DNA from: an uncultured delta proteobacterium
GTDB taxonomy: Bacteria; Myxococcota_A; Polyangia; Polyangiales; CAVUEK01
Direction: 5' to 3'
NCBI GenBank assembly: GCA_963740495.1
Contig: CAVUEK010000009.1
Coordinates: forward strand, 80,722 to 144,721
Length of the DNA: 64,000 bases
Shown here: piece by piece, positions 1,599-59,210 of the stretch
Layout: every line of letters begins with the position of its first letter
Numbering within the stretch: position 1 is the stretch's first letter
Made by a program: the position numbers and the translations under genes
The notes under the pieces: model-generated
Told to the model about the DNA's origin: nothing
The model's database searches: none
What the model saw: the letters and a program-made list of their open reading frames with translations, nothing else

Positions 1599-1617
1599 CA
1601 CGACCACCGGACCTTCG

Positions 1618-6344: not shown

Positions 6345-6391
6345 GAGGCCCGACTTGCGCTACCCATGCCGCGGAGGCTAAACCCCGCCGG

Positions 6392-7294
6392 ATGCCGCGG
6401 CTGAGTGTTGTCGTCCCGTCGTACAACGCGCAAGCGCTCTTGTCGCGCGCGCTCGAGCGGCTCGCACAGACCGCGAACGGCGCCGAGATCATCGTCGTCG
6501 ACGGCGGCTCGAAGGATGGCTCTCCCTCCATCGTTCGCGAGCAATTTCCGCGAGTTAAGCTCATCGAGCAGCCGAACTATGGCTGGGGTCATGCCACCAA
6601 CCGAGGGATCGAGGCGGCGTCCGGCGACCTCGTGCTCATGATGAATTCCGACCTGTTCCTGAGCACTCCGGCGCTCGACGCGATGGAGGAGCGACTCCTC
6701 TCGAGCCCGGGCGTCGGCGCCGTCGGGCCGTATCTCCTGAACGAGGACGGCACGCGCCAGCGCGTGTTCTCCGCGCTGCACTGGCCGCGGTACGTGCCGA
6801 TGGTCGGCCCGATCTCGGTGCCGGTCGTCTCGGGCGCGTGCATGATGACGCGACGCGACGTGCTGAGCCGCGTCGGGCTCTTCGACGAAGGCTTCTTCAT
6901 GTACAACGAGGAGTACGACTTCTGCGGCCGCATGCGTGAGCACGGCTACCGCGCCGAGCTCGTACCGTTCGGCGTCGTGCACGTCGGCGGCGGGTCGACG
7001 CAGCCCTCTCACGAGCTCGTGCTCGAGACGCACCGCGGGTTCATGTACCTGATGGACAAGCGTCATCCCGGCGTCGTGAGCGAAGGAGTCCGACGCCTGA
7101 TGCAGCTCAAGGGCTGGTTCGGCAAGCGGTTCGAGCGCGAGCCGGCGAAGCGCGAGATGTGGGCGCAGCTCGAGTCGATCGCGGCGCGGGAGGCGTACAC
7201 CGAGAGCCCGTTCGAGCTCAGCGGGCGCCGAGAGGTACGCTTCAAGCGCGGCTCGAACGGCAAGTCGAACGGCAAGTCGAACGGCGGGCGCTGA
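6392..7294 (+). CDS. glycosyltransferase family 2 (WbbL-like, possibly rhamnosyltransferase)
   Basis: SVVVPSYN, IVVDGGSKD, NSD, VSGACMM, FDEGFFMYNEEYD. Confidence 0.9.
   Translation: MPRLSVVVPSYNAQALLSRALERLAQTANGAEIIVVDGGSKDGSPSIVREQFPRVKLIEQPNYGWGHATNRGIEAASGDLVLMMNSDLFLSTPALDAMEERLLSSPGVGAVGPYLLNEDGTRQRVFSALHWPRYVPMVGPISVPVVSGACMMTRRDVLSRVGLFDEGFFMYNEEYDFCGRMREHGYRAELVPFGVVHVGGGSTQPSHELVLETHRGFMYLMDKRHPGVVSEGVRRLMQLKGWFGKRFEREPAKREMWAQLESIAAREAYTESPFELSGRREVRFKRGSNGKSNGKSNGGR
7253..7285 (+). repeat. 12-bp tandem repeat TCGAACGGCAAG x2.75 (SNGK tail)
   Basis: Directly visible at the 3' end of the GT2 gene. Confidence 0.8.
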
Positions 7295-7306
7295 GCGTCG
7301 AGTCGG

Positions 7307-26822: not shown

Positions 26823-29285
26823 GTGACGCCGATGACTCTGCTTCGCTTTCAGCGCCTCGCCTGCACGTTCGTCGCGGGCCTCACGCTCGCCTCGTGCGCG
26901 AACGGCTCGGGCGCCCAGATCGCGCCCCTACCGCCGCAGACGGCCGTCGTGGGGATGCTTCTCAGAGTCCCCGTCGACGTGCAGAGCGGCTCGACGTCGA
27001 TGACGATCGGGCTCGAGAGCGATACCCGCGCTACCGCGAGCGGGACCGGCGCGGGAGGCGAAGTGCGATGGACGCCGCTCGCGGCGGAAGTGGGCATGCA
27101 CGAGCTCCACGTGTTGTTGCTCGATGGCGACACCGAGATCGATCGAGAGACGCTCGTCGTGACTGTCACGCCGTCGGCGGACTCGGCTCCGATCTTCGTC
27201 ACGCCGAGCGGTGCCGGCCAGACGTTCGACCTCTCGCGAGACGCGACGGTCCGTTTCGACGTCGACGTTCGCGACGACGACACCAACGACATCACGCTCA
27301 GCGCGACGAGCTTGCCCGAAGGCGCCCGCTTCGATCCCGTCGGGCCGAAGGAAGGCGAGTTCAGCTGGGAGCCCACGCCCGACCAGGTCGAGGCGAGCGA
27401 GCGCTGGACGATCACTCTCCTCGCGGACGACGGCGACCACGAGCCGACACAGAAGCAGTTCATCGTGGTCTTGCGCTCGGGACCTGGGCGCGAGGGTTGC
27501 CCGGGGTCGCCGCCGAGCATCGTGATCGCGGAGCCGTCCGAAGGAGAGCACCGGTCGAACGAGCCCGGTTATACGGTCGCCGTCGACGTGAGCGACGACG
27601 TGGGCCTTCGTGACGCCCCGCTCCTCTACTACGCGACGACACAGCCCGACGACCCCGAGAAGCCCGACATCACCGAGTTCGAGCAGGTCCCGTTCAGCCC
27701 GGATGGCAGCTCGTTCGTCGCGCGGATCCCGTCGCTCGGTCTCGCGACCGGCGCCGAGCAGCAGGTCTGGTACGTGGTCAGCGCCACCGACAACGACGAC
27801 GCCGCCGGGACCTTGTGCGACCACCGCGTCGACAGCGATCTGCACTCGTTCGTCGCCGTCGGTGGCGATGCCTCGGGCGGGCTCGCTCGATGCCAGCACT
27901 GCACGCGGTCGAGCGACTGTACGTCCGGCATCTGCGCGACCGAAGCCGGTGGCGGTCGCTGCCTCGACGCATGCAGCGGCTCGTGCGGCTCGGGGACGTG
28001 CGGAAGCCGCACGACGACGGAGGGCGGCGTCGTGTCCGCGTGCGGACCGGTGAGCACCGTCTGTCTCGGCCGCAGCGACACGTGCACCGACGACACCTAC
28101 GAGCCGAACGACACGCTGAGCAGCGCGGCCACGGCGCCCGACTCGCTGTCCGGTCAGATCTGCTCGGGGGACGACGACTTCTACCGGATCACCACGTCGA
28201 CCGGCACGGACCTGACGGTCACGATCGACGGATTCGTGCACGGCGATGGCGATTCCGATCTCCAGCTCCTCGGGGCGACGGGGACGATCCTCGCGTCGAG
28301 CGCGGGCGTGACAAACAGCGAGAGCGTCCACTACTGCGTGCCCTCGGGTGGCAACGTGTACGCGCGCGTCCTCGGGTACCTCGGCGCGGAGAACCACTAC
28401 GACATGCACGTCCTGCGCTCCGCGGGCAGCTGCTGCCTCGACGACGCCCGCGAGGACGACGACAGTCGCGCGAGCGCACGCACGCTCTCCGGCACCTCGT
28501 TCGACGGCACCATCTGCCCTCGAGACGACGACTACGTCCGTTTCAACGTATCGAGCCCGACGGGCGTGGTGATCACTCTCGTGTTCGACCACTCCATGGG
28601 CGACCTCGACCTCGAGCTCTACGGGCCCAGCGGAACGCTGGTCGCCGCCTCGCGCGGGACGACCGACGAGGAGGACATCACGATGGACCTCTTCGAGACC
28701 GGGACCTACACCATTCGCGTCCTCGGCTACATGGGCGCGCTCGGGGACTACCTCGGCGAGGTTCGCTTCACGAGCTTCAGCGGCTGCACCTCGAGCGCGG
28801 GCTGCCCGAGCGGTCAGGTCTGCGACACCGGCAGCTGTCGCAGCGGTAGCTGCACGAGCTCGAGCACGTGCCCGTCCGGCCACATCTGCCCGACGGCCGG
28901 GCCCGGCGGCGGCGCGAGCACGTGCGGACAGTCGTGCACCGTGAACACCGACTGCAAGGGATCCGAAGCGTGCAAGTGGTTTCCGGAGGGCCGTTACTGC
29001 GGCGCGCGCGGCAGCGGGCTCAACGGCGCGGCGTGCACCAACTTCGCTGCCTGCGGTGGCCAGCGCGCATGCGTCGCGTGGACGGGAGGCTACTGCGCGC
29101 GCGCCGGCTGCGCGCACAACAGCGACTGCGAGACCGGAACGTACTGCGTCAACGTCTCGGGCCAACGCGTGTGCGCGCTCGACTGCTGGGCCGCGGACGA
29201 GATCTGCCGGTTGAGCGGCGGCTACGACTGCAACGTCGCCACGGACACGGACGGCTTGGTCGAATTCGTATGCACGCCCGGGTGA
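26823..29285 (+). CDS. secreted lipoprotein with Ig/cadherin-like, two PPC and Cys-rich domains
   Basis: LASC lipobox; LPEGARF/FSWEP Ig-like repeats; DDTYEPND...DDDFY and DLDLELY PPC motifs; Cys-rich C-terminus. Confidence 0.8.
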   Translation: MTPMTLLRFQRLACTFVAGLTLASCANGSGAQIAPLPPQTAVVGMLLRVPVDVQSGSTSMTIGLESDTRATASGTGAGGEVRWTPLAAEVGMHELHVLLLDGDTEIDRETLVVTVTPSADSAPIFVTPSGAGQTFDLSRDATVRFDVDVRDDDTNDITLSATSLPEGARFDPVGPKEGEFSWEPTPDQVEASERWTITLLADDGDHEPTQKQFIVVLRSGPGREGCPGSPPSIVIAEPSEGEHRSNEPGYTVAVDVSDDVGLRDAPLLYYATTQPDDPEKPDITEFEQVPFSPDGSSFVARIPSLGLATGAEQQVWYVVSATDNDDAAGTLCDHRVDSDLHSFVAVGGDASGGLARCQHCTRSSDCTSGICATEAGGGRCLDACSGSCGSGTCGSRTTTEGGVVSACGPVSTVCLGRSDTCTDDTYEPNDTLSSAATAPDSLSGQICSGDDDFYRITTSTGTDLTVTIDGFVHGDGDSDLQLLGATGTILASSAGVTNSESVHYCVPSGGNVYARVLGYLGAENHYDMHVLRSAGSCCLDDAREDDDSRASARTLSGTSFDGTICPRDDDYVRFNVSSPTGVVITLVFDHSMGDLDLELYGPSGTLVAASRGTTDEEDITMDLFETGTYTIRVLGYMGALGDYLGEVRFTSFSGCTSSAGCPSGQVCDTGSCRSGSCTSSSTCPSGHICPTAGPGGGASTCGQSCTVNTDCKGSEACKWFPEGRYCGARGSGLNGAACTNFAACGGQRACVAWTGGYCARAGCAHNSDCETGTYCVNVSGQRVCALDCWAADEICRLSGGYDCNVATDTDGLVEFVCTPG

Positions 29286-31135
29286 GACCAGTCTCCCTGG
29301 CAGCAGCGGTGGCGCTCTCGACGCTGGCGTGCGGGAGCGATGCACCACCGCCACCGCCGCCCGACGAGCGCCCGATCATCGGCAACGTCGAGGCTCCGAC
29401 CCCGACGCTCGAGGGGAGCCTGCTGCGGGTGACGGGCAGCCGCTTCGAGTTTCTCGGCGACGCGCCGTTTCTCGCGCTCGACGGTCCGGACGGCGGGGAC
29501 GACCTTCCGCTCGAGCGCGCCGGCGCGCCGGGCGAGCTCTTCTTCCGCGTGACGGCGGGTCTCGTCGGGTCGCTCGGCAACGGTCTTCACGCGCTCGACG
29601 GCACGCTCCACGGAGACAACGGGACGAGCGACCCGTACCCGGTCGATCTCGAGATCGCGAGCGAGCTCTCCATCTCGCTCGACGAGGTCCCGTCCGGCCT
29701 CGTCCATCGCAACGACCTCGGCGTCGTGCGCGGCGGCGGGATCCTCGGCGAGGGCGAAGGGACGGTCTACGCGCACTTCGAGGGAACGTTCTCCGCCGAC
29801 GCGGGAGGCAGCGCCGCGGTCGACGTGCGAATTCCGGTCGCCCCCGCGGAGCGCTACGACCGCGAGCGCGGCGTCGTGCGGCTCACGACCGCGATCGGCG
29901 GGCTCGCGACGGGATCGTTCGACGGAACGATCACGCTCGAGTCGGAGCCGGCGTCGGGCGGTACGCTCGCGTCGAGCCCGCTCTCGACCTCGCTCACGTT
30001 CATCGGTCCCGAGCTCTACGCGTTCTCGCCGTCCGAGGTGTACCTCGAGCAGGTCGTCACCGTGCAAGGAGCCGGCTTCCTGGGCGGCCCGGACGAGCCG
30101 GACGAGCTCACGATCGTGCACATCGACGGCACGTTCGAGCCGGAGGACGGCCTGCCCCGCGCGGTCAGCGAGGACCTCGTGCTCGATTGGATCTCGGGCA
30201 CCGAGCTGCGCACGACGATCTCCGCGGAGGTGAGGAGCGCGAGGCTCGTGTCGGCGCTCTTCGGGGCGAGCCGAGGCGTGTTCACCGGCCGCGCTACGCT
30301 CACCGTGGTCAAGGGCGTCGAGGAGCTCTCGAGCACGCCCGTGGACTTCGCGCTCACGCTCGCGGGCATGAAGCAGGTCGTTTGGGTGCAGTTCATCCCG
30401 GGGTTCTACGTGAGCCTCGCGCGCTTCGGGCTGCAGGGCGCCTACGGGCGCATCGAGGAGCTCGTGCGCGAGCGCATGCAATCCATCTACGCCGATTACA
30501 ACGTCGACATCCGCCTCGAACAGCCGACCGACTTCTCCGAGAACGGCTTCGCGCGCGTGGAGGTCGGGGGCCCCGACCCGACCGGGCGCGGGCTCTTCGG
30601 CTACGACAACACGCCGGGCAAGGACGTCTACAACACGCGCCTCTTCGACCGCATCGGTGGCGCGAACTCCGAGCGTCAACAGCAGGACGACGCTCCGGGC
30701 TACGGCGGCGTCTTCGTCGAGTCGTTCCTCTACTTCTCGTCGCACCCCGACCTGCCCGGAACGCCGCCGCTGAGCCGCCCGGATCCGGATCCGCTCTTCG
30801 ACGAGATCTTCAACCCCGTCCGCAGTCGCACGGCGTCGCTCGCGGAGCTCGACGGCGAAGGCGACCCCGCGCGCGTCGACGCCGTGCAGCGCGCGTTCCA
30901 CGCCCTCGCGTCGATGATCGGCGAGACCACCGCGCACGAGCTCGGCCACAGCCTCGGCCTCGCGAATCCTCGCGGCTCGCCCACGTCGTTCCACAACGCC
31001 ACCGACGATCCCGGCTGCCTCATGGACAACGGCGGCAACCGCACCATCGCGGAGCGCACCGACCAACCCGGCGCCGAGCCCACCCACCTCTGCCACGACG
31101 CGCCCAGCTACCTCGCCGAGATCATGCCGCGCTGA
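29282..31135 (+). CDS. lipoprotein zinc metallopeptidase with IPT/TIG-like N-terminal domains
   Basis: TLAC lipobox; HELGHSLGL; CLMD Met-turn; GTG overlaps the upstream stop. Confidence 0.78.
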   Translation: MRPVSLAAAVALSTLACGSDAPPPPPPDERPIIGNVEAPTPTLEGSLLRVTGSRFEFLGDAPFLALDGPDGGDDLPLERAGAPGELFFRVTAGLVGSLGNGLHALDGTLHGDNGTSDPYPVDLEIASELSISLDEVPSGLVHRNDLGVVRGGGILGEGEGTVYAHFEGTFSADAGGSAAVDVRIPVAPAERYDRERGVVRLTTAIGGLATGSFDGTITLESEPASGGTLASSPLSTSLTFIGPELYAFSPSEVYLEQVVTVQGAGFLGGPDEPDELTIVHIDGTFEPEDGLPRAVSEDLVLDWISGTELRTTISAEVRSARLVSALFGASRGVFTGRATLTVVKGVEELSSTPVDFALTLAGMKQVVWVQFIPGFYVSLARFGLQGAYGRIEELVRERMQSIYADYNVDIRLEQPTDFSENGFARVEVGGPDPTGRGLFGYDNTPGKDVYNTRLFDRIGGANSERQQQDDAPGYGGVFVESFLYFSSHPDLPGTPPLSRPDPDPLFDEIFNPVRSRTASLAELDGEGDPARVDAVQRAFHALASMIGETTAHELGHSLGLANPRGSPTSFHNATDDPGCLMDNGGNRTIAERTDQPGAEPTHLCHDAPSYLAEIMPR

Positions 31136-37518: not shown

Positions 37519-37664
37519 GGCTTGGCGTCCGTGTGAGCACACGTGATACGTCCCCTGGTGCGCGCGCGTCGAGGTCGGGCTAGACTCGGACGGTTTCGGA
37601 GGAGGCCGTCGCGTAAGGCGTTCCAAGACGCCCCCCGGTGGGGAGCGTCCGACACGACACGAGC

Positions 37665-39182
<1,518 letters not shown>

Positions 39183-44948: not shown

Positions 44949-46622
44949 CTACCGCGGCGGCTTGGCCCAGTCCGGTATCTTCAGGTCGTTCGAGGAGTGC
45001 CCACCGGTGCCCTGCGAGCCGTTCCCGTTGCCGTTTCCCTCGCCGTGAGGGCGCGCGCCTCCCCCGCGACGCGACAGGACCATCTCGATCTCCATCGCCT
45101 CGGTCGGCTCGAGGTCGCGCGACGCGACCAGACGGCCACGACGCGCGCGAATCCGGAGCGCCTCGCCGGGCGAGGCGTCGAACGAGCAAGGCGATGGATC
45201 ACAGACCACACCTCGGCCGTCGACTTCAATCTCGGCGCCGGACGGCTGCGTCGAGACGCGAACGCTCACGAGCGACGGCGCGACGGTCTCGGGAGGTGGA
45301 TCCGTTCGCTCCGGGTCGTCCGCAGAGGCGCGCTCGGGATCGACGGCGGCGAGCCCGGCGTTCTCTTCGGGATGCGACGGAGCGGCCGCGACGGGCGGCA
45401 CGGGCGTCGTTCCGTTTGCCGCCGTTGGCTGCGGCCGAAACGCGAAGTAACCACCGACGCCTGCCGCGACGAGCGCGAGCATTCCGCCTGCGATAGCGAG
45501 GCCCATGCGAGCGCGCCTCGGCTCCCCCGAGTACTCGGTCGTGGGCGCCGCCTCGACCATCCTCGCGCGGTTGCGGGCCGACCGGCTCGGCTCCCCATAG
45601 CCGGGAACCGTGTGGTCGTCGTGAAACGCACCGGACAGGTCCATCGCGACGGCGAGGGCGCGCCCGTACGCGCCCATCGACGGGTAGCGCTCGTCGGGCT
45701 CCTTCGCGAGAGCCTTCAGAATGACGAGCTCGAGCTCTTCTGGACAGACGACGTTCTGGTTGATCGCGCGGAGCGGCGGCACCTGCTCGAACATGTGCTG
45801 CGTGAGTATCCCCATGAACGTGTCGCCGATGAATGGGACCCGCCCGGTGAGTGCCTCGAAGAGGATCACGCCGAGCGCGTAGATGTCGACGCGGTGATCC
45901 AGCGGCTTTCCGGCGGCCTGCTCGGGTGACATGTACTCGGGCGTCCCGAAGATCATCCCGGTCTTCGTGAGCTTTCGGCCGGGCGCGCCCTCCGTCTCGA
46001 TGTCGCTCATCTTCGCGATGCCGAAATCGACGATCTTCACGAAGTCGGCCTGCTCGTCGCGACGTCGTGAGGAAGATGTTCTCCGGCTTCATGTCGCGAT
46101 GGACGATGCCCTTCGCGTGCGCGGCGCCGAGCGCGCGGCAGCACTGCAGGACGATGTCCACGCGCGCGCGCGGGGCGCGAGCGTCCCCTCCCGCGCGAGG
46201 ACGTTCGCGAGGTCTTCGCCCTCGAGCGTACTCCATCACGAAGTAGCTCGCGCCCGTCGGCGTCTCGCCGAAGTCGGAGATGTCGACGATGTGCTCGTGG
46301 CCGATGCGCGACGCGCTCTTGGCCTCTTGGCGGAAGCGCTCGACGACCTCGGTGCGCTTCGAGAAGTCGTCGCGCAGGACTTGATCGCGACCTGCTTCTC
46401 GATGATCGTGTGCTCGCCTCGTAGACGATCGCCCATCCCGCCTTCGCCGATCGCGCGGATGACTTTGTAGCGACCGCCGAGCGTCGATTCCGACGAGCGG
46501 ATCGCTGGCGTCGGGGCCCTCGGTCATCATCTGGCTCGGCGTGCTGAGGCGCGCACCGTCCAGCGGGCAGAAGACCTCTCCACCGCCGATACTCGGACTT
46601 GCACGATGGGGCAGACCTTCAT
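44949..46622 (-). CDS. Ser/Thr protein kinase with N-terminal Cys knuckle, TM and PEGA-like domain (frameshifted)
   Basis: MKVCP...FCPLDG; HRDMKPEN; DFGIAK; GTPEYMSPEQ. Confidence 0.92.
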
Positions 46623-48646: not shown

Positions 48647-49602
48647 CTGAGCCGGCGCTGCCCGAAGTCCTGGTCCTCGCCGGCGCGACGGCGACGGGAA
48701 AGACCGACATCGCGATCGACATCGCGAGCGAGGTCGGGGGCGAGATCGTCGGCGCCGATAGCGTTCAGGTGTACCGAGGGCTCGACATCGGCTCCGGCAA
48801 GCCGACGCGAGCGGAGCTCCGCGGCGTCCGGCACCACATGATCGACATCGTGGATCCCGACGAGCCGATCGACGCGGTTCGATACGCGGAGCTGGCGGAC
48901 CGCGCGATCGCCGATGTCGCGGCTCGAGGTCGCCTTCCGATCGTCGTCGGTGGCACCGGGCTCTGGCTCCGCGCGTTGCTGCGCGGCCTCGTCGACGTGC
49001 CCAAGGTCGATCCCGACGTTCGCGCTCGGCTCGAAAGAGAGGCCGAGCGCGACGGTGTAGCCACCCTCCACGCGCGCCTTTGCGCCGTGGACCCGCGCGG
49101 CGCGAGCGCCATCCACCCGCACGACCGCGTGCGCATCGTGCGCGCGCTCGAGGTGTACGAGCAGACCGGCGAGCCGCTCGGCGAGCTCCGCGCGCGCCAC
49201 GCGCTCGGAGCGCCGCGGTACGGAGGGATGGCGCTCGTCCTCGATCGTCCGATCGACGCGCTCGAGTCGCGTATCGAGAGCCGGGTTCGTCGAATGATCG
49301 ATGCGGGGTGGGCGACCGAGGTCCGATCGCTCGTCTCTCGGTGGGGCTCGGAGATACGCGGGCTCCACGCCGTCGGCTACGAGGAGATGCTGGGGCACGT
49401 CACGGGCGGGCCGCCCATGGACGAGACCGAGCGTCGCATCATCAAGGCCACACGCGCGTACGCTCGGCGGCAGCGAAATTGGTTTCGCGCCGAGCCCGGG
49501 CTCGAGCCGCGAGTGGCCCCGGATGCATTGCTCGCCGCGGGCGAGCTGCGAGATCGGATCCGAGCGCTCGCGGGCTCGGCTCGCACGAGAGGTGCGATGT
49601 GA
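48643..49602 (+). CDS. miaA: tRNA dimethylallyltransferase
   Basis: [43 protein letters not shown]; canonical mutL-miaA order. Confidence 0.96.
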
Positions 49603-50258
49603 ACTTCGTCGCGCACGCGTTCGTCGCGCTCGGGGCCCGTTCGTCGCCAGCGATTGTCCTCGGCGCGATGCTCCCGGACTTCTTCGGAATGGCGCGCACG
49701 CGAGGTGCCCGCACCGACCATGGAGAGCTCGCGAGCGGCATCGCCCTCCATCACGCCACCGACAGCGCCTTTCACGGAGCCAAGACCTTCCTCGCGCTCA
49801 CTGCGCAAGCCGTCGGCGAGCTCGAGGCTCGCGGTGTCGCGCACGGGCCCGCGCGGGCGGCGGCGCACGTCGGCATCGAGCTGCTCCTCGACGGCTTCGT
49901 CGTCGAGGAGCCCGGCCTGCGCAACGCCTACGCGGCGGCGCTCGCCGTCGCGCCGCGGACGGCGCTCGGCCGGCACCTCGCGTTTCGCCGCCCCGACCAC
50001 GGCGAGCGTTACGACGCGCTCGTCGAACGCCTCGCAACGTGGGGACTGCCGGAGGGGTTCGCGGAGCCCGACGCGGTGGCCGATCGCCTCTCTCGCGCGC
50101 TCGCGGGCCGGCCACGCCTCGCGCTCGACGACGCGGCGGAGCGAAGCGTGCGCGTGTGGCTCCCTCTCGCCAAGGAATCGCTCGGCAACGTCGTCGGAAG
50201 ACTGCTCTCGGAGGTTCGCGAGGGCCGCGCGCGCGCTCGGGACGTGCCGTCAGGTTGA
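49599..50258 (+). CDS. AcpH/DUF479-like HD-type hydrolase
   Basis: NFVAHA, LGAMLPDF, GIALHHATDSAFH. Confidence 0.65.
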   Translation: MNFVAHAFVALGARSSPAIVLGAMLPDFFGMARTRGARTDHGELASGIALHHATDSAFHGAKTFLALTAQAVGELEARGVAHGPARAAAHVGIELLLDGFVVEEPGLRNAYAAALAVAPRTALGRHLAFRRPDHGERYDALVERLATWGLPEGFAEPDAVADRLSRALAGRPRLALDDAAERSVRVWLPLAKESLGNVVGRLLSEVREGRARARDVPSG

Positions 50259-50373
50259 CACACGACGGGGCGCGCATGCGATACTTCGCGGGTCTAGCTC
50301 AGCGATTTTGCGAGGCAAAAGCACGCCGGGCGACGCGAGGAAGAGCCGAAGAAGCAGAAGGACAGAGAGCCCG

Positions 50374-52552
50374 GTGTCCCAAGCCCACGTCCCGGCACCT
50401 CCACCCCCGCCTCCTCCCCAGGGAGACGACGCCGCCGGCCCGCCCGAGCTCCCCGAAGAGCAGATGCCGAAGCGCTTCGGCAAGTACACCCTCATCCGCC
50501 GGCTCGCGCTCGGTGGCATGGCCGAGCTCTTCCTCGGCATCCAACGCTCGATGGCCGGCTTCGAGAAGCTGATCGTCATCAAGCGCGTCCTTCCCCACCT
50601 GGCGAAGGACACCGACTTCGTCGAGATGCTCCTCGACGAGGCTCGCATCGCGGCCACGCTGAACCACCCGAACGTCGCCCACATCTACGACGTCGGCGTG
50701 TTCGAGGCTCAGTACTTCATCGCCATGGAGCACATCCACGGCGAGGACCTGCGCTCGATCGTGCGGCAGATGAAGAAGAAGGAGGTGACGGCCTTCCCGC
50801 TCGAGCACGCGCTCGCGATCGTGCTCGGGTGCTGCTCGGGGCTCGCATACGCGCACGAGAAGAACAGCCTCGACGGCGAGCCTCTCAACATCGTGCACCG
50901 TGACGTGAGCCCGCAGAACATCCTCGTCACGTTCAGCGGCGACGTGAAGCTCGTCGACTTCGGCATCGCCAAAGCCGGCAGGAGCGCCGAGGAAGAGACG
51001 AAGAGCGGCAAGCTCAAGGGAAAGATCCCGTACATGAGCCCGGAGCAGGCGCAGGGTGTGCTGCTCGACGCGCGCAGCGACATCTTCAGCCTCGGCGTGA
51101 TTCTCTTCGAGCTCTGCACCGGGCGCCGCCTCTTCAAGGGCACGAGCGAGTTCGACACGATGCGCCTCATCGTCGACGGGGAGTACCCGAGGCCTCGTGT
51201 TCTCAACCCCGCCCTGTCGCCGCGTCTCGAAGAGATCATCATGCGCGCGCTCGCGAAGGACCGCGACAAGCGGTACCAGACGGCGCGCGAGCTGCAGGGA
51301 GATCTCGAAGGCTTCATTCGAGCCGAACGCCTCGCGGTGAGCCCGCTCTCGCTCGGCGAGTGGATGCAGGGCCTCTTCGCCGAGAAGCTCGCGCAGCAAA
51401 AGCAGATGCTCCAAGAGGGCCGCCAGCTCGCCGAGGTCATCGCGGCGCAAGTCGCGGAGGAGGAGGCGGAAGCGAAGGAGGTCCTCGCGTCCGGAGTTCA
51501 TCGGCGCAAGGCGAGCAAAGCGCCGTGGATTCCTCCTCGTGCTCGTTCTGCTCGCCGCCGGAGGCGCCGGCGCGTTTCTCCTCACGCGCCCGCCGAAGAC
51601 CGGCATCGCCACCGGGCCGGGCGTCCTCGACGTCGAGACGACGCCGCCTGGCGCCGCGATCTGGCTCGACGGCGACCGGAGGAGCGAGCGGACACCCGCG
51701 ACCCTCCGGCAGCTCCCCGTCGGGGCCACGTACACGGTCAAGCTCGCCGCCGACGGCTACGCCCCCCACGTCGAGCAGGTGCGCTTGACGACCGCCGAGC
51801 CTCACGGTCGCCTGCAAGCGACGCTCGAGCGGCCGTCGGCGGACTCCTTCGCGGTCGTGAACGTCCGAACGATTCCGGCCGGCGCTCACGTCCTCTTCGA
51901 TGGGACCGACACGAGCGAGACTACGCCCGCAACGGTTCCACGCATCGAGCCGGGCATCGAGCACACGCTCGTGCTCACGCTCGACGGCTACGTCACGCGC
52001 TCGGTGCCGCTCACGCTTCGCGCCGGCCAAGCGGAAGACCTCGTCTTCGAGCTCGAGCGCACGCCGCTCACCGACGCCGAAGCGATCCTCCGCCTCGTCA
52101 CCGAGCCCGACGACGCGCGCGTACAGCTCGACGGTCGCTGGTACGACACGGGAAGCCCCTACGAGTTCCGCGTCCAAGCCCGCGCATACCGGCTCGTCGT
52201 CGCCAAGAGCGGCTATCGTCCGGACGAGCAGCACGTCGAGCTGCCGGGCGGCGAGGTCACCGAGACGACGGTCCGCCTCCATCAAGCCCGCCGCACCGGT
52301 GGAAACCAGACGGGAAGCAGCGAGGTGACGCCCACCGCGAGCGGTCCGGGCCAGCTCACGTTCGACGCGAGGCCCTGGTGCCAGGTGTCGATCGACGGCA
52401 GCGGCGTCGGTCAGACGCCGATCGTCAACCGCACGCTCCCATCCGGACACCACCGGATCACGTGCACGAACCCCGACCTCGGCGTCACCCGCACCGTCAA
52501 CGTCGAGATCCGACCGGGCGAGACGACGCGGCAGCGCATCTCCCTCGAGTGA
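50374..52552 (+). CDS. receptor Ser/Thr kinase with TM and four PEGA-type domains (frameshift ~51530)
   Basis: LALGGMAE, VIKR, HRDVSPQN, DFGIAK, KGKIPYMSPEQ; TTPPGA, TIPAGA, TEPDDA and ARPWCQVSIDG repeats. Confidence 0.93.
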
Positions 52553-53526
52553 ACGCGCACGAGCCACCGACCCGCGACAAGAAGAAGCGGCGCATTCTCT
52601 TGGCCATCCAGATCGCGGGCTCCGCCTGCGGGTTCGCGTACATCGCAGCGGTCGCCGATCTCGGCGCGGCGTTCGACGCTGCTCTCTCCGCACCGCTCAC
52701 GAGCCTCGGCGCCGCCATCGCGATCGGCTTCGCGACGCTCGGAGTCGGCGCGCTTCGCTGGCAGATCCTCCTGCGCGCGTATGGTGCCACCCAGGTTCCC
52801 GCGCTGCGCCGCCTCTATCTCATCTACCTCGTGGGTCTCTTCTACAACTGCTACCTCCCCGGCGGCGTGGGCGGCGACGTCGTGCGGGGCGTGGTCTCTC
52901 GCGAGGCGTTCGGCGCCGAGGGCGTGACGCGTGGAATCGCGGTCGTCACCGTCGAGCGCGCGCTCGGCTTGAGCGGGCTGCTCCTCGTGTGTGCCGGCGC
53001 GCTCTACGCACGCCCGGTCCCGACGGCGATTCCGAGCGAAGCGGCGCTCGGGCTCGCCGTCGCTTGCACGGTCGGCGTCGTGGTCGGACTCGCATGGGCG
53101 CGACGCCTCGCGCCGCGGCTCCCCGGCGCGCTCGCCCGCGTCGCAGGTGCGCTGCCTCGAGCACGGAGCCTCGGCAGCATAGGGATCGCCCTCGCGCTCA
53201 GCGTCGTCACGCAGCTCGGCGTCGCGCTCGCTGGCCACGCCGTGCTCAGCGCGATCGAGCCGCGCGCGATGCTCGCCGACTCTCTCTTCATCGTCCCGCT
53301 CGCCGCCGCGACCGCGTTTCTCCCCATCACGGTCGGCGGCGCGGGCGCGCGCGAGGCCGCGTTCGTCGTCCTCGCGGCGACGGTGATCGGGACGAGCCAA
53401 GACCGCGCCACCGCAGCGTCGCTCCTGCTCTGGGCATCTCAGCTCGTCGTCGCGGGCGTGGGCGGCATCGTCCAGATTTTTCTCCCGGTCACGCGCGTCG
53501 CGACGCGAGCCGACGAAGCATCATGA
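52549..53526 (+). CDS. lysylphosphatidylglycerol-synthase TM domain (flippase-like) protein
   Basis: LRWQILL, FYNCYLPGGVGGDVVR, ER, LPITVGGAGARE. Confidence 0.88.
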   Translation: MNAHEPPTRDKKKRRILLAIQIAGSACGFAYIAAVADLGAAFDAALSAPLTSLGAAIAIGFATLGVGALRWQILLRAYGATQVPALRRLYLIYLVGLFYNCYLPGGVGGDVVRGVVSREAFGAEGVTRGIAVVTVERALGLSGLLLVCAGALYARPVPTAIPSEAALGLAVACTVGVVVGLAWARRLAPRLPGALARVAGALPRARSLGSIGIALALSVVTQLGVALAGHAVLSAIEPRAMLADSLFIVPLAAATAFLPITVGGAGAREAAFVVLAATVIGTSQDRATAASLLLWASQLVVAGVGGIVQIFLPVTRVATRADEAS

Positions 53527-55464
53527 GCGAAGTCGGCCCGCGCCCGCGGCTCGCGACGCTGTACCTCCCGCTCGCCGCGCCGGGCGTTGCGTGGGCCACC
53601 TCGGCCGTCGTCTTCGCCGTCTACGTCGCGACGATGGGTCGAGATTCTCGGCCCGTACGACAGCGCGGAGCTCGCGCTCGCGGCGTGCGAGCCGGGGCTG
53701 AGCCATCCGATCGGCCAACCGCTCCACACCCTCCTCGGCTTCGTCGCGTGCCACCTCCCCGCCATCCCCTCGCTCGTCGGCCTCGGGCTGCTCTCCGCGC
53801 TCCCCGCTGCGCTGACGATCCTGCCGGTCGCGTCCATCGCCGAGCGGCTCGGCGCCGGGCGCGATCCGCGCGGCACCGGGATCGTCCTCGCTCTGTTCGC
53901 GCTCCACGCCACGCTCTGGGAGCCGGCGACGCGAGTCGAGGTCTACGCACTCGGCACGTTCTTCGCGCTCTGGTCGATCGCGCGCGGCGTCGCCGCAGAG
54001 CGCCCGCGCGACCATGCGCTGGTCGGCCTCGCCGCCGGTCTCGCGGCGTCTTCGAACGCGTGGCTCGGCGTGATGGCAGCGGCGACGATCGCGCCCCGGC
54101 TGCTCTTCGCCCTCCGGCGCGATCGGCGCGCTCCTCGTCAGCTCGGCGCGGCGGTGGCTCTCGGCCTCGCCGGCCTCGTCCCGTACGCGTGGATCCCGTA
54201 CGCGTTCGTCGCCCGGCGCGGACACGCGTTCGTCTGGGGCGCGTCGGGCGCGCCCGATGCGCTCTCGTTCTACCTCCGCGGCGCCGACTACACGCAGAAC
54301 CGGCAGCTCACGGGCGACCTCTTCGCGGACAACCTCGCGCGCTTCGCGTCATGGGGCGTGACGAGCGGTTACCTGCCGTTGCTCGCGCTCGGCGCCCTCG
54401 GCGTCGCGCTCGCGAAGGATGCGCCGCGGGCAGCGCGCTTCGCCATCGTCGTGCCGGTCGCGCTCTCGATCGGGCTCGTCACGACCAACGCCATCTACGA
54501 GCCGACCGTCCTCGACCACCTCGGCTACCTCGCTCCCGGCCTCTGGCTCGCCGCCGCATGCGTCGCGGCAGCGCTCGCGGGTGCACGGACGCGGAGCGGG
54601 CGCGGCAGGATGGGCGCCGCGCTCGGTGTCTTCGTGCTCGGTGTCGCCACGCTCGTCGGACCGCCCTCGATCCTCGCCCGCACGCGTGCGCGCGACGACT
54701 CGCTCCGCGTGCTCGTCGATGGCGTGCTCTCGGAGGCGCCGCGCGACGCGATCCTCGTCGTCGAGCGCGACCACTGGGCCGCTCCGCTCCTCTACGTCCA
54801 ACGCGTCGAGCACGCGCGCCCGGACCTCGTGATCCTCCCGTACGGTCTGAGCGCGTCGTCATGGTATTGGCAGCTCTTGCAGCACGACCACCCGCGGCTC
54901 CGGCGATTCGCGCTTCGAGGGCCGGGAGGGCGCCCCGCGCGCCTGCAGCGGTTCCTCGGCGCGAACCCCGAGCGAGCGGTGCTCGTCCAGACCCGTGAGC
55001 TCGGCGCGATCGTTGGCCTTCCGATCTGCGGCGTCGGATTTCTCGCTCGCGCGCGCCCATGCCCCGCACCGGCGCTCGACCCGGGCGTCGCGACGCGCGC
55101 GACAGCCTCTCTGCTCTCGCGCATCGGGCATGGGTCACCCGCGACCGACGAGGTGCTGGCGAGCGTGGCGCTCGACCGCGGGCTCGCGCTCGCGGACCTC
55201 GGGCGGTTTGCAGACGCGCTCAGCGCGCTGCTCTCGGGAGTCGTCGAGCCACCGGCCAGCCGCTGGCCCGCGGGATCGTCGCTCGACGCACCGCTCGGGC
55301 CCCTGCCACCCTTCACGGGCCACGCAGCGATCGGAGACGAGCGCAGAAATCTCCACGTCGCGGCGATCCTCCTCCTGCGAGCCGGCGCCGAGCGCGAGAG
55401 CCGGCGGCTCCTCGACGAGGCCGCGCGCCGGGGCCTGCCGCGCGCGTTCGCGACGCCCCCGTGA
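53523..55464 (+). CDS. DUF2723 (TMEM260-like) GT-C glycosyltransferase (frameshift ~53640)
   Basis: YDSAEL, HPIGQPLH, ATRVEVYAL, LYVQRVEHARPDL. Confidence 0.82.
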
Positions 55465-55504
55465 GGTCGCACCCCCTCGCCCGACCCGGTGGTATCGTCC
55501 GCGC

Positions 55505-56024
55505 GTGCGGCACTCCTCGCATGGAACCGGCGCGTTCACCCCGGCCGACCTCGCTGCCTGCGGCGAAGGCTGCGTGTTCGAGACCGGAGTACTGATTCTT
55601 CACCCCGAGAACGTGCGGCTCGGCAAGAACGTCTACGTCGGCCACCAGACGATCCTCAAGGGCTACTACAAGAACGCGCTCCTCGTCGGCGACGAGACCT
55701 GGATCGGACAGCAGTGCTTCTTTCACTCCGCCGGCGGTCTGACGATCGGCGCCCGCGTCGGGATCGGGCCCGGCGTGCGCATCATCACCTCGACGCATCG
55801 CGAGGTCGGCCGCGCGACGCCGATCCTCCTCGCTCCTGTCGACCTCGCCCCGGTCGTGATCGAGGACGACTCGGACCTCGGCACCTCGTCGGTGATCTCT
55901 ACCGGGCGTCACGATTGGCAGAGGCGCCCAGGTCGGCGCCGGCTCCGTGGTGACCCGCGACGTGCCCCCGTACGCCGTCGTCGCCGGCGCGCCCGCGCGC
56001 GTCCTTCGCGAGCGCCCCGAGTGA
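55505..56024 (+). CDS. hexapeptide-repeat acyltransferase (frameshift ~55900)
   Basis: [60 protein letters not shown]. Confidence 0.9.
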
Positions 56025-56747
56025 GCGAGCGGACACCTTTGTCGGTCGTCGTCCTGGCGTACGACGAGGAGGAGAACGTCCCGGCGGTGCTGGGCGAGCT
56101 CCTCGCGTGGCTCGACGCGAACGAGCCCGACGCCGAGGTCGTCTTCGTCGACGACGGCTCACGAGACGCTACGCGTGCGCGAGCTCGAGAGATCCTCGGC
56201 GGGCGACGCGCCACCATCGTCGGACACGAACGCAACCGAGGGATGGGCGCCGGGCTCAAGACCGGTGTCCGCGCGGCGACCGGCACGTGGGTGACGTTCC
56301 TCCCGGCGGACGGACAGATCGCCCCCGAGGCGATCGGAACGCTTCGCGCCGCGGCCGACGACGAGACCGACGTCGTGCTCAGCGTGTACGAGCATCGCGA
56401 CGACGGAGTGCATCGAACGATCCTGTCGTGGGGCGTGCGGGCACTCGATCCTCGCGGTGCACGGCGTGCGCCTCCGGAGCGACGGCCCCTACCTCTTCCG
56501 CCGCCGGCTCTTCGTCCCCGAGCAGCTTCCGCCCGACACGTTCTTCCTGAACTTCGAGTTCCCGATCCGAGCCCTCGCGGCGGGCCTGCGCGTCCACACC
56601 GTCGTGATCGAGTGCCGTCCCCGTCGCGCAGGGCACTCCAAGACCACAGCGTTCGGCCGAGCCGCCGGCGTCGCGCGTGATCTCGTCGCGCTTCGATGGC
56701 GTCGAACGCGCGAGCTCGCGGCCAACGCCCTCGGACTGCGCCGCTGA
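56021..56747 (+). CDS. GT2 polyprenol-phosphate glycosyltransferase (DPM1-like; frameshift ~56445)
   Basis: [38 protein letters not shown]. Confidence 0.88.
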
Positions 56748-56758
56748 CGCGTTCGCCC

Positions 56759-56787
56759 TTGAAACCCGAGGCTCGCGTGACTACGAA
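56759..56787 (+). promoter_or_regulatory. sigma70-type promoter, probably leaderless
   Basis: TTGAAA-17bp-TACGAA, ATG 6 nt downstream. Confidence 0.55.
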
Positions 56788-56793
56788 GACCGC

Positions 56794-57594
56794 ATGGATC
56801 GCGCCCCGGCCGTAGCTGGCACGTTCTACCCGAAAGAAGCTGCCGCGCTCGCGAGCACGGTCGATGGCCTGATCGGCGAGACGGTGGCAGACGAGCACGC
56901 GATCGCCGTCGTCGCGCCGCACGCCGGGTACGTCTACAGCGGCGCCGTCGCCGGCGAGGTGTACGCGGCCGTGCACGTTCCCGAGATCGCCGTCGTGATG
57001 TGCCCGAATCACAGCGGTCTCGGAGCGCGCGCAGCGATCATGAGCACGGGCGCGTTCCTCATGCCGGGCGGCGCGGTGCCGATCGCCGAGCCGGTCGCGG
57101 AGGAGCTCCGCGATCAAGCGGGGCTCACGGAGGACGCACGTGCCCACGCGCGAGAGCACGCGCTCGAGGTGCAGCTGCCGTTTCTGCGCGCGCGCAATCC
57201 CGGCGTATCCATCGTCCCGTTGTGCCTGGGCGTGCTGCCCTTCGAGTCGTGCGCTCGCATCGGGACGGCGCTCGCCGACGTGATCGCTCGCCATGGTCGC
57301 GTACCGCTCATCGTGGCCTCGACCGACATGAGCCACTACATCCCCGCCGAGAGCGCGCGACGCCTCGACCGAATGGCGATCGACCGGATCGAGCGCCTCG
57401 ACGCCGAGGGTCTCTACCGAACCGTCTTCGACAACGACATCACGATGTGCGGTGTCATCCCGACGACCGTCGCTCTCGTGACCGCCCGCGCGCTCGGCGC
57501 GCGCAGCGCCGAGCTCGTGCGTTACGCGAACAGCGGCGACGTCTCGGGAGACTTCGACCGCGTCGTCGGCTACGCGGGCCTCGTCGTTCGCTGA
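56794..57594 (+). CDS. amrB: AmmeMemoRadiSam system protein B (MEMO1 family)
   Basis: PAVAGTFYP, PHAGYVYSG, PNH, EHALEVQLPFL, ASTDMSHY, TMCG, VVGYAG. Confidence 0.95.
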   Translation: MDRAPAVAGTFYPKEAAALASTVDGLIGETVADEHAIAVVAPHAGYVYSGAVAGEVYAAVHVPEIAVVMCPNHSGLGARAAIMSTGAFLMPGGAVPIAEPVAEELRDQAGLTEDARAHAREHALEVQLPFLRARNPGVSIVPLCLGVLPFESCARIGTALADVIARHGRVPLIVASTDMSHYIPAESARRLDRMAIDRIERLDAEGLYRTVFDNDITMCGVIPTTVALVTARALGARSAELVRYANSGDVSGDFDRVVGYAGLVVR

Positions 57595-57635
57595 CCCTGA
57601 AGCGCACGAAGGCGCCCCGGCTCACCGATGCGCGT

Positions 57636-59210
57636 TCACCGCCGGACCTTCACCGCCGGCATCTCCTGCACCGTGCGCCGCACGCGCGTGCTCGCGGGGC
57701 CCTTCAACCGGTCGCGCAGCGTCGAGCGCGGCAAGCCGAGGGCGCGCGCCGCCGCGGTGAGGTTGCCGCCGTGACGCTCGACCTCTTCGGAGAGCGCGAC
57801 GTTCTCCCGCCGCACCGCATCGATGCCGCCGACGCGAGCGAGCGCGGCGTCGACGTCGCACGACTGGATCACCTCGGCGGGCGTCGCGGCGGCAGCGGTT
57901 GCGAGCACGTTGCGGAGCTCGCGGACGTTTCCCGGCCACGGATGCTCGAGCAACCTCCCGAGCGCAGGCTCGCTCAGCCGACGTGTGCCGATGTCGTTCG
58001 CCATCTCGCGCAGAAACCGGGCCGCGAGCGCGCACAGGTCCTCGGGCCGGTCGCGAAGGGGGGGCAGCTCCACCACGAGCCGCGCGATGCGATAGTAGAG
58101 GTCTTCTCGGAACGCGCCCTCTGCGACCATCTCGCGGAGATCGCGATGCGTCGCACAGACGAGCCTCACGTCCACGCGCGTCGCGCGCTCGCTACCCACG
58201 CGCCGAACCTCCCACGTCTCGAGCACCCGAAGCAGGCGCGTCTGCAGGTCGAGCGGAAGCTCGGCCACCTCGTCGAGAAAGAGCGTCCCGCCGCTCGCCT
58301 GCTCGAACACGCCGCGATGCGCGCTCACCGCCCCCGTGAACGCGCCGAGCTCGTGACCGAAGAGCTCGCTCTCGACGAGCTGCCGCGGGAGCCCCCCTGC
58401 GTTGAGCGCGACGAACGGGCCGGGCGCTCGAGGCCCGTCGCTGTGGAGGCGGCGGGCGACGAGCTCCTTGCCCGTACCGCTCGCTCCGTGCAGAAGCACC
58501 GGCCAGCTGAGCCGGGCGAGCCGGAGAACCTCGGCGAGGACGCCCTGCATCGCGGGCGAGGCGACCACGATGTCCCCGTCGGCGTCGTCGTCTCGGTCCA
58601 CCGAGACGTGGAGGTCGGTCCGCCCGATCCGCACGTGCGCCCCGGGACCGACGCGCGCGACCGTGACCCGTACCCCATCGACCCACGTGCCGTTCGAGCT
58701 GTCGAGATCGCGGATCAGCGCGCCGTCGAGCAGCTTGTCGACCCGGAGGTGGCGCGCGCTGACCGTGGGGTCGGGCAAGACCACCTGATTCGCGGGCGAG
58801 CTTCCCACGTGGAGCGGCTCGTCACACAGCCGGTGCCGCCTCGCTTCGCTGCCCCGCCCCACCGTGAGGACGAGGTGCCCGGGCCGCTCGCGCGGCAGGG
58901 CGACCTGCTCGGTGCGAGGCGTTTCCCGGCACACCCGACCCTTCGACTCGACGCGGACGAGGGAATGATGAAGCCCGAGGGCGAGGCGCAATCCCCGGCG
59001 GACGGCGCGGCCCCGCCAGGGTCGGTCGCCCGAGAGGTCGTAGGCCACCACCTCGTCGCCCCGACGGCGGACCAGCCACGCGCGCTCGGCGATGCCCGGG
59101 TCGTGGACGACGATGTCGCAGGCCGAGCTCCGACCGATCTCGAGGGGGCGAGCGTCCAACGGAAACTCGCGGAGGGGCTCCTCGCGGTAGCACAGAACGA
59201 GCGCGTCCAT
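57636..59210 (-). CDS. sigma54-dependent activator with N-terminal FHA domain(s) and Fis HTH
   Basis: GRSSACD and VSARH...DLDSSNGT FHA motifs; GASGTGKE, ESELFGH, GAFTGA, LFLDE, WPGNVREL; SD GGAGG. Confidence 0.95.
   Translation of the reverse strand: MDALVLCYREEPLREFPLDARPLEIGRSSACDIVVHDPGIAERAWLVRRRGDEVVAYDLSGDRPWRGRAVRRGLRLALGLHHSLVRVESKGRVCRETPRTEQVALPRERPGHLVLTVGRGSEARRHRLCDEPLHVGSSPANQVVLPDPTVSARHLRVDKLLDGALIRDLDSSNGTWVDGVRVTVARVGPGAHVRIGRTDLHVSVDRDDDADGDIVVASPAMQGVLAEVLRLARLSWPVLLHGASGTGKELVARRLHSDGPRAPGPFVALNAGGLPRQLVESELFGHELGAFTGAVSAHRGVFEQASGGTLFLDEVAELPLDLQTRLLRVLETWEVRRVGSERATRVDVRLVCATHRDLREMVAEGAFREDLYYRIARLVVELPPLRDRPEDLCALAARFLREMANDIGTRRLSEPALGRLLEHPWPGNVRELRNVLATAAAATPAEVIQSCDVDAALARVGGIDAVRRENVALSEEVERHGGNLTAAARALGLPRSTLRDRLKGPASTRVRRTVQEMPAVKVRR

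Follow-up and report, generated by a model that had tools for sequence, protein, structure and literature searches.

Only since 2023 has the human protein TMEM260 been known to be a glycosyltransferase; its loss leads to a severe human developmental syndrome. It is a protein O-mannosyltransferase of the endoplasmic reticulum that acts on IPT domains (PDB 9rql, 9rqm, and 9rqn; PMC10214176; preprint 10.64898/2026.03.17.711096). The accessible parts of the structure preprint report that D52, H67 (sugar-recognition motif), R264, Y267 (donor-loading loop), and D441 are essential, that D441 is the catalytic base in the luminal Rossmann-like domain, and that TPR 'fingers' grip an extended acceptor peptide (preprint 10.64898/2026.03.17.711096). 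The accessible part of the 2023 study mentions only 'distant homologs in bacteria', and among the papers listed in our literature search we found none, judging by title or abstract, on the function of bacterial TMEM260 relatives. Here we describe such a relative, a glycosyltransferase of the GT-C fold class, encoded in a stretch of 64,000 nucleotides (the window) from an uncultured delta proteobacterium of the order Polyangiales (contig CAVUEK010000009.1). It lies in a module at 50374-56747 (+) together with a receptor Ser/Thr kinase carrying PEGA repeats, a membrane protein of the LPG_synthase_TM family, a hexapeptide-repeat acetyltransferase, and a family 2 glycosyltransferase (GT2). An initial annotation of the window, made from the nucleotide sequence alone, had named these five families; Pfam matches all of them, and both ends of the module fit.

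Bacterial systems in which a GT2, a flippase, and a GT-C enzyme are encoded together, as here, include ArnC/ArnE-F/ArnT, GtrA/GtrB/GtrC, CsbB/GtcA/YfhO, and PpgS/Rv3632/Rv3779. The present locus resembles the Arn and Gtr systems in that its GT2 is nearest to ArnC, DPMS, and GtrB, and in that ArnT is among the best fold matches of its GT-C enzyme. It differs from them in several respects: its flippase-like protein belongs to the MprF/UPF0104 family and not to the GtrA or ArnE/F type, its GT-C enzyme is TMEM260-like, its GT2 has no transmembrane (TM) helices and is coupled to a soluble acetyltransferase, and the operon of one lineage starts with a receptor kinase. The actinobacterial pair Ppm1/Pmt likewise combines a polyprenyl-phosphate sugar synthase with a GT-C enzyme and glycosylates secreted proteins on Ser/Thr; Pmt, however, is of the PMT (GT39) family, and neither a dedicated flippase gene nor an acetyltransferase is known to be part of the system.

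Two further systems share protein families with the locus. In archaea, the accessible text of PMC5898192 describes AglD, a fusion of a GT2 and a UPF0104 domain, and neighborhoods of a PMT/STT3-like enzyme, a UPF0104 protein, and an AglD-like GT2; the same three protein families are adjacent here. Unlike in AglD, the GT2 and the UPF0104 protein of the window are separate genes, the GT-C enzyme is TMEM260-like, and the host is bacterial; flipping by the archaeal proteins is itself a prediction in that text. The GpgSDF operon of Pseudomonas aeruginosa, as far as described in the accessible part of PMC12713373, similarly unites a glycosyltransferase, an enzyme acting on acetyl groups, and a UPF0104 flippase-like protein. 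There, however, GpgS is a GT4 enzyme with phosphatidylglycerol as its substrate, GpgD takes an acetyl group off instead of attaching one, and a GT-C enzyme is not part of the operon.

Our hypothesis is that the genes of the window form one operon for a periplasmic glycosylation system that uses a polyprenyl-phosphate-linked monosaccharide, a reading to which we give an even chance. Its central component, the DUF2723 enzyme, is by sequence and predicted structure a true relative of TMEM260 with a GT-C fold, as the initial annotation had suggested from family recognition. The match of window positions 53629-55461 to PF11028 reaches 35.9 bits (gathering cut-off 24.2), and that of the orthologue at the related locus L018 37.1 bits, while a PMT_2 match of the window enzyme stays under its cut-off (E 5.7e-4). 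A profile was built from 61 sequences, namely the window and 60 of the 80 related loci studied (out of 94 confirmed); the other 20 were left out since none of their tblastn segments alone spanned 88% or more of the query. This profile matches the human TMEM260 chain 9rql_A over chain residues 31-480 with an E value of 3.5e-23 (4.8e-20 with the profile of another alignment, A1). Besides 9rql, it matches no PDB sequence at E up to 0.01. The match covers the TM core and the Rossmann-like domain, with about 40 residues aligned per 100 and over parts of the chain only. Within it, the equivalents of D52 and H67 (D11 and H26 of the window fragment) are Asp and His in all 61 aligned sequences, and the equivalent of D441 (D381 of the window fragment) is Asp in 60 and Gly in one.

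The AlphaFold2 model of the window fragment (pLDDT 91.9, pTM 0.92) predicts TM helices up to approximately residue 345, followed by a beta-alpha domain and five C-terminal helices. The periplasmic lobe modeled alone (pLDDT 92.6) was also predicted to contain a beta-alpha domain, and beta-alpha units are found in both models. In a Foldseek search, the top 35 rows were all GT-C enzymes (AglB with E 2.6e-5, ALG9, STT3, ArnT, PglB, and Pmt4), and the first protein of another class appeared at rank 36; ArnT (5f15) reached a TM-score of 0.48 on the query. As 9rql was not returned in the Foldseek search of the PDB, the likeness in fold to TMEM260 itself rests on sequence. The helical tail is most similar to TPR proteins (Z 8.3, 8.1, and 8.0; root-mean-square deviation 2.1-2.6 over 77-82 residues), scores that are middling for helical repeats, and Pfam TPR repeats are present in more distant members of the family. 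The modeled domain order of GT-C core, Rossmann-like domain, and helical TPR-like tail appears to be that of TMEM260. The bacterial enzyme differs from the human one in being predicted to act in the periplasm and in being encoded with its own putative donor-making genes; a polyprenyl-phosphate monosaccharide donor, as used by TMEM260, is suggested by the neighboring GT2, and the sugar is perhaps acetylated.

Two other members of the family deserve mention. In the orthologue at L021:8208-10814 (-), about 230 residues made up of Gly/Thr/Ala and Ala/Glu/Asp/Ser repeats are inserted into a loop after the fifth or sixth TM helix, which corresponds to columns 250-490, approximately, of alignment A1. 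The window's genome also contains a second, more canonical TMEM260-like gene (contig 6, L103:8244-13755; PF11028 E 8.5e-27), after which come a TPR segment and a PD40 beta-propeller protein; neither a GT2 nor a flippase-like gene was found within 8 kb of it.

Among the partner genes, the TM protein is, as judged by its match to PF03706 (91.1 bits, cut-off 33.4) and approximately eight hydrophobic segments, a member of the MprF-flippase family, for which flipping of lipid-linked sugars is predicted. The acetyltransferase has no hydrophobic segment and exceeds the Hexapep cut-off narrowly (28.5 bits, cut-off 27). Its PDB matches are a DapD-type N-acetyltransferase (3r8y, 2.7e-14, a local match of 59 residues) and a maltose O-acetyltransferase (3srt, 4.6e-14, residues 55-169). 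It resembles the Maa/LacA/WcaF O-acetyltransferases at the level of superfamily membership only, the top single matches being to different LbH subfamilies. The best PDB matches of the GT2 orthologue are ArnC (9bhc, 8.5e-6, residues 5-221 of 237), DPMS of P. furiosus (5mlz, 1.3e-5), and GtrB (5ekp, 4.3e-5). No hydrophobic segment was found in the GT2, which consequently is without the C-terminal TM helices of the GtrB/ArnC type. Since TM-less polyprenyl-phosphate GT2s such as DPM1 exist, this lowers the probability of membership in the GtrB/ArnC subtype only.

The LPG_synthase_TM domain has been named PplT, and fusions of it to glycosyltransferases and, in Actinobacteria, to protein kinases are described in the accessible part of a preprint (10.1101/2022.03.11.483950). 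Archaeal UPF0104 members have been predicted to be flippases of glycosylation pathways and adjoin a PMT/STT3-like enzyme and an AglD-like GT2, according to the text available of PMC5898192. In our representative library, protein P0063 (868 aa) combines an LPG_synthase_TM and a TMEM260-like domain in one predicted protein, which may be a genuine fusion joining flippase and transferase or else an artifact of read-through in gene calling.

The genes are tightly coupled. Three stop/start overlaps of the GTGA/ATGA type, which the initial annotation had placed at 52549, 53523, and 56021, are read directly from the three-frame translation (GTG 52549 with TGA 52550-52552, ATG 53523 with TGA 53524-53526, and GTG 56021 with TGA 56022-56024). 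This coupling is conserved in related loci: a start giving a 4-nt overlap between acetyltransferase and GT2 is available in 38/38 loci, and the flippase-like and GT-C genes overlap by 4, 8, or 11 nt in 52/56, counts for which the start nearest such an overlap was chosen, favoring small gaps. A promoter and terminator scan of 49400-57800 gave no promoter-like and four terminator-like sites (2.0 expected) and is uninformative at 70% GC.

A GT-C relative is present in 30 of the 41 genomes of the same order, counting the window's own. The 80 related loci are labeled nearly throughout as Myxococcota or with the older delta-proteobacterial name; three are labeled Proteobacteria/Pseudomonadota and one is without a phylum. 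The flippase-like gene lies directly 5' of the GT-C gene in 52 of the 76 loci with at least 1.3 kb upstream, and acetyltransferase and GT2 lie directly 3' of it in 33 of the 59 with at least 1.8 kb downstream. Among the 51 fully flanked loci, the four-gene core without the kinase was found in 27, all five genes in four, only kinase, flippase-like protein, and GT-C enzyme in two, and other arrangements in 18, nine of which have no partner adjacent to the GT-C gene. In six loci (L040, L023, L036, L055, L057, and L088), a GT2 gene is located directly upstream, adjoining the flippase-like or the GT-C gene. As seen by tblastn, the wider block consists of a minus-strand kinase, then mutL, miaA, an AcpH-like gene, in some loci the PEGA kinase, the flippase-like, GT-C, acetyltransferase, and GT2 genes, and finally a minus-strand sigma-54 activator with an FHA domain. 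The four-gene core is widely conserved in Polyangia within this mutL-miaA block. When the 61 GT-C sequences are arranged in a maximum-likelihood tree, the 32 four-gene loci lacking the kinase group as a single clade (support 100/100), and the window belongs to an 11-row group (96/92) that holds all six kinase-linked rows of the alignment.

In the pathway that we propose, the TM-less GT2 would take a sugar from its nucleotide-activated form and attach it to polyprenyl (undecaprenyl) phosphate on the inner membrane face. The soluble hexapeptide enzyme would O-acetylate the lipid-linked sugar or its nucleotide precursor; the lipid-carried monosaccharide is probably O-acetylated. The LPG_synthase_TM protein would flip the lipid-linked sugar and may also serve as an anchor for the GT2, as the archaeal GT2-UPF0104 fusion AglD suggests. 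Finally, the TMEM260-like enzyme would pass the sugar to a hydroxyl group in the periplasm, its Rossmann-like domain and TPR-like lobe holding the acceptor. The three-component logic of lipid-linked sugar transfer, possibly with an acetylated sugar, which the initial annotation had put forward, remains tenable with an ArnC/DPMS/GtrB-like GT2, an MprF-family protein, and an acetyltransferase resembling the Maa/LacA/WcaF type. Such a compact system would be testable: the transferase adjoins genes expected to make, modify, and flip its donor, and the split active-site residues are conserved. The family is large, with 15,977 cluster representatives matched by the profile at E up to 1e-3, 8,895 at 1e-10, and 1,179 at 1e-30, and identifying the sugar and the acceptor would give a function to this large bacterial group of GT-C enzymes and show whether protein O-glycosylation by the TMEM260 family predates animals.

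Several observations weigh against this reading. The similarity of the GT2 to polyprenyl-phosphate transferases is weak (E about 1e-5), and its matches to the NCBIfam families PpgS, ArnC, PgfS, and AglJ are all far under the curated cut-offs. The GT2 motif is PADGQ in 41/41 orthologues, with PAD at the place where DPM1/GtrB-type enzymes have the metal-binding motif DAD. Similarly, all NCBIfam matches of the acetyltransferase are under their cut-offs (a transferase of phosphonate clusters, TIGR03308, first with 2.2e-19, followed by the WcaF family with 1.3e-18), as is that of the flippase-like protein to TIGR00374 (E 6.5e-10). In the GT-C enzyme, two essential TMEM260 residues are not kept as such. 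The column of R264, which in TMEM260 contacts the phosphate, holds Ala in 33, Gly in 22, and Leu in six of the 61 sequences and Arg in none, in a loop of loose alignment where Arg stands one column earlier in 10/61; the Y267 column holds Phe in 40/61 and Tyr in 21/61. Furthermore, all 80 related loci come from metagenome-assembled genomes and none from an isolate, so that cultured carriers are absent among them, and the assembly of the window's genome is rich in errors. Finally, in the accessible parts of the sources, the characterized LPG_synthase_TM members act on phospholipid derivatives and not on polyprenyl-phosphate sugars (preprint 10.1101/2022.03.11.483950; PMC12713373). Experimental support for flipping within the family is given there for MprF only, while GpgF and AglD are predictions (preprint 10.1101/2022.03.11.483950; PMC12713373; PMC5898192).

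The last point speaks for a different arrangement, in which the product of GT2 and acetyltransferase, flipped by the flippase-like protein, is a membrane glycolipid, for instance a glycosylated phospholipid comparable to the products of GpgSDF and HexSDF, and the GT-C enzyme has another substrate. MprF acts on Lys-phosphatidylglycerol, and GpgF, a member of the LPG_synthase_TM family, is encoded in the operon for GlcN-phosphatidylglycerol according to the accessible text of PMC12713373. We nevertheless consider a glycolipid product improbable. Among solved structures, polyprenyl-phosphate transferases come closest to the GT2, whereas GpgS is described as a GT4 enzyme in the part of that source available; moreover, the flippase-like gene is tied to the GT-C gene by overlaps of 4-11 nt in 52/56 loci, and a predicted fusion of the two domains exists.

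As to the acceptor of the proposed polyprenyl-phosphate pathway, a protein is favored because the D441 equivalent is conserved and a TPR-like tail is present, as in TMEM260. We regard a protein acceptor as plausible and put it at about one half; most likely, it would be an extended Ser/Thr-containing stretch of an envelope protein. The competing possibility, to which we attach clearly less weight, is the same donor pathway with a non-protein acceptor such as lipid A or the lipopolysaccharide core, exopolysaccharide, peptidoglycan, or a protein-attached glycan, by analogy with ArnT, GtrC, YfhO, and archaeal AglS. Most characterized bacterial trios of GT2, flippase, and GT-C enzyme decorate lipids or glycans and not proteins (ArnC-ArnT, GtrABC, CsbB-YfhO, and PpgS-Rv3779), which counts against a protein acceptor. 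So does the composition of the core loci: no acceptor gene travels alongside, and the 27 fully flanked four-gene cores are without an adjacent candidate gene for a protein substrate. The location of the core within a housekeeping block (mutL-miaA), as expected of a general envelope function, the presence of ArnT among the top structural matches, and the absence of an R264 equivalent point in the same direction. On the other side, the only PDB sequence matched by the profile is TMEM260, a protein O-mannosyltransferase, the acceptor-activating D441 of its luminal domain is kept in 60/61 sequences, and the tail resembles the TPR that grips the peptide in TMEM260, as stated in the accessible part of the structure preprint.

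Candidate acceptors had been sought by the initial annotation in the PEGA repeats of the kinase and among proteins at 26.8-31.1 kb, the latter described there as IPT/Ig-like. This description did not hold, as no TIG/IPT domain was detected at E up to 1 in 26823-31126; nor was an IPT domain found near the module. Pfam recognizes a PPC domain and a sub-threshold He_PIG match in 26823-29267 and no domain in 29363-31126. The sequon of human TMEM260 is P-x6-P-x3-P-x2-G-G-x3-T/S according to a preprint. No full or middle-length match to it was found in the 23,402 residues of the open reading frames (ORFs) of the window, and one short match occurs in 29363-31126; the search is uninformative because the bacterial TPR tail has diverged.

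The first gene of the operon encodes, by its sequence, a Hanks-type receptor Ser/Thr kinase with a PEGA ectodomain. The IVIK, HRD, DFG, and SPE motifs are all present, a single hydrophobic TM segment precedes the PEGA repeats, and the catalytic part is 73% identical to residues 12-385 of the L018 kinase (tblastn), which is intact as one frame of 726 aa; in relatives, kinase and PEGA parts likewise form one frame. What is new here is that, in one lineage, the operon begins with this kinase, which makes the receptor a candidate partner of a TMEM260-like enzyme in that lineage. It appears to be a lineage-specific addition that would act either as regulator or sensor of the pathway or as its client.

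The synteny from kinase to GT2, named as a check by the initial annotation, is found in part. The PEGA kinase is upstream in one GT-C subgroup, amounting to 10/65 loci with at least 4 kb upstream (11/80 overall), and is missing from most loci, among them the 27 of 51 fully flanked loci with the four-gene core. This weighs against a role of the kinase in the system, as does the number of kinase loci in the 6 Mb genome (approximately 148), because of which a kinase neighbor alone is unremarkable. Since the conserved block from mutL-miaA to GT2 exists without it, the PEGA kinase looks like an insertion. Accordingly, it may be a passenger that entered between the AcpH-like and flippase-like genes in one lineage and is functionally unconnected, a possibility that is compatible with either acceptor and that we rate somewhat below even. 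The kinase-free block in the 32-row clade and the second PEGA kinase in the same window are in line with this. A mere passenger is harder to reconcile with the 4-nt stop/start overlap with the flippase-like gene, which is possible in 7/10 kinase-linked loci, and with the persistence of the kinase, flippase-like, and GT-C trio in L024, L028, and L069 without upstream mutL-miaA, that is, under a different upstream context. A different PEGA kinase is also convergent to the GT-C gene in L091 of the same subgroup, and kinase/PplT fusions are reported for Actinobacteria in the accessible text of the preprint (10.1101/2022.03.11.483950).

A more specific proposal is that the PEGA ectodomain is a dedicated client of the TMEM260-like enzyme, whose O-glycosylation would be needed for folding or signaling of the receptor. 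We consider this unlikely. If true, bacteria would have an equivalent of the process in which TMEM260 O-mannosylates the beta-sandwich (IPT) repeats of the receptor kinases cMET and RON, and the association between enzymes of this family and receptor ectodomains would be ancient and not a metazoan invention.

Two further PEGA kinases were observed. The second one of the window, at 37638-39068 (+) (Pkinase E 3.7e-50, PEGA E 6.1e-9), is unlinked to glycosylation genes. At L091:9905-14624, within the kinase-linked GT-C subgroup, there is no flippase-like gene, and the PEGA kinase is found just 3' of the GT-C gene.

Four of the five genes are interrupted in the window, which the initial annotation had overlooked. 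A one-base shift of +1 occurs mid-gene in each of the kinase, GT-C, acetyltransferase, and GT2 genes, as localized by a plot of third-position G+C (GC3) and by tblastn of the intact L018 orthologues against the window. Contiguous residues of the L018 kinase map to 50398-51531 (12-385) and 51533-52549 (386-726). The shift in the GT-C gene is near 53640-53655, the first TM helix being in a different frame from the remainder, and that in the acetyltransferase gene near 55899-55906. In the GT2 gene, the shift lies at 56446->56448, with L018 residues 5-141 at 56039-56446 and 142-227 at 56448-56705. The same genes are uninterrupted single frames in ten loci from relatives. Four one-base shifts within 6.4 kb, all in the same direction, could mean that the cluster is decaying and that its genes are pseudogenes in this organism, a reading that we hold to be very improbable. 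GC3 remains high within the shifted frames. Elsewhere in the assembly, which has 6.05 Mb in 25 contigs and a marker completeness of only 54.6%, matches to rpoB are scattered over 14 pieces and those to rpoC over eight in different frames, none attaining the family cut-off (contig 15, 375666-383931), and enolase (approximately 23563), a minus-strand kinase (approximately 46060), and ClpB (contig 6, L103:14566-17148) are split as well. As rpoB, rpoC, and enolase are likewise broken, essential genes cannot be so broken, and the orthologues of relatives are intact, the four frameshifts are most likely uncorrected assembly indels; the genes are therefore taken as intact in the organism. Gene calls from this genome consequently need frame checking. 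Programmed frameshifting was rejected, since other parts of the assembly show essential genes with breaks in either direction. A kinase-flippase fusion suggested by a frame 1 ORF (49654-53526, 1290 aa) was also rejected, since the codon bias in the central portion of this ORF does not fit and coding lies in the PEGA frame.

As the window has a G+C content of about 70%, raw ORF lists are noisy. The layout given in Table 1 was derived from the GC3 plot together with three-frame translations and Pfam scans of the pieces.

Table 1. Features of the module and of the ORF preceding it, in window coordinates
Feature	Start	End	Strand	Evidence
AcpH-like ORF	49575	50258	+	Pfam ACP_PD E 3.3e-4, 21.2 bits, under cut-off 27
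Ser/Thr kinase, cytoplasmic catalytic part, frame 1	50374	51531	+	ATG 50374; Pkinase E 1.8e-35
Same kinase gene, frame 2: one TM helix and four PEGA repeats	51533	52552	+	PEGA E 5.3e-35, four stretches; stop TGA 52550-52552
LPG_synthase_TM (UPF0104/PplT, MprF-flippase family) membrane protein	52549	53526	+	PF03706 E 1.2e-25; GTG start, 4-nt overlap with kinase stop
GT-C enzyme, first TM helix, frame 3	53523	53645	+	ATG, 4-nt overlap with flippase-like stop; aligns to N-terminal region of intact orthologues
TMEM260-like (DUF2723) GT-C main body, frame 1: TM core, Rossmann-like domain, TPR-like tail	53629	55464	+	PF11028 E 8.5e-9
Hexapeptide-repeat acetyltransferase, N-terminal part, frame 2	55505	55906	+	Hexapep E 1.1e-6; 61% identity to L018 residues 1-134
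Same acetyltransferase, frame 3	55896	56024	+	Hexapep E 1.3e-4; 87.5% identity to L018 residues 132-171; stop TGA 56022-56024
GT2, N-terminal part, frame 2	56021	56446	+	Glycos_transf_2 E 2.3e-25; GTG start, 4-nt overlap with acetyltransferase stop
Same GT2, frame 3	56448	56747	+	71% identity to L018 GT2 residues 142-227; stop 56745-56747

The AcpH-like ORF, for which no NCBIfam match was found, precedes the module. In most loci with the conserved block, an AcpH-like gene lies directly 5' of the flippase-like gene or the kinase, after mutL and miaA (tblastn); the ORF may belong to the module. Downstream of the GT2, a Memo-like gene for an AmmeMemoRadiSam system protein B (56794-57594 (+), TIGR04336 E 4.7e-79) is inserted before the sigma-54 activator; it was found in none of the 80 related loci by tblastn, and this placement is unique to the window. 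The FHA-domain sigma-54 activator (57645-59210 (-)) is convergent to the operon, and the minus-strand kinase (44961-46380 (-)) is divergent, upstream of mutL. Both flank the conserved block in most related loci, irrespective of the presence of the PEGA kinase, and may form a phospho-threonine signaling pair.

A second glycosylation region occupies window positions 555-10677. It comprises rmlB, rmlA, rmlC, and rmlD (555-3880 (+)), a membrane-like ORF with a weak PMT match (3895-5550 (-)), a 2OG-Fe(II) oxygenase (5550-6356 (-)), a GT2 (6410-7282 (+)), a GT2-methyltransferase fusion (7337-8839 (-)), and a PMT_2 GT-C enzyme (8905-10677 (-)).

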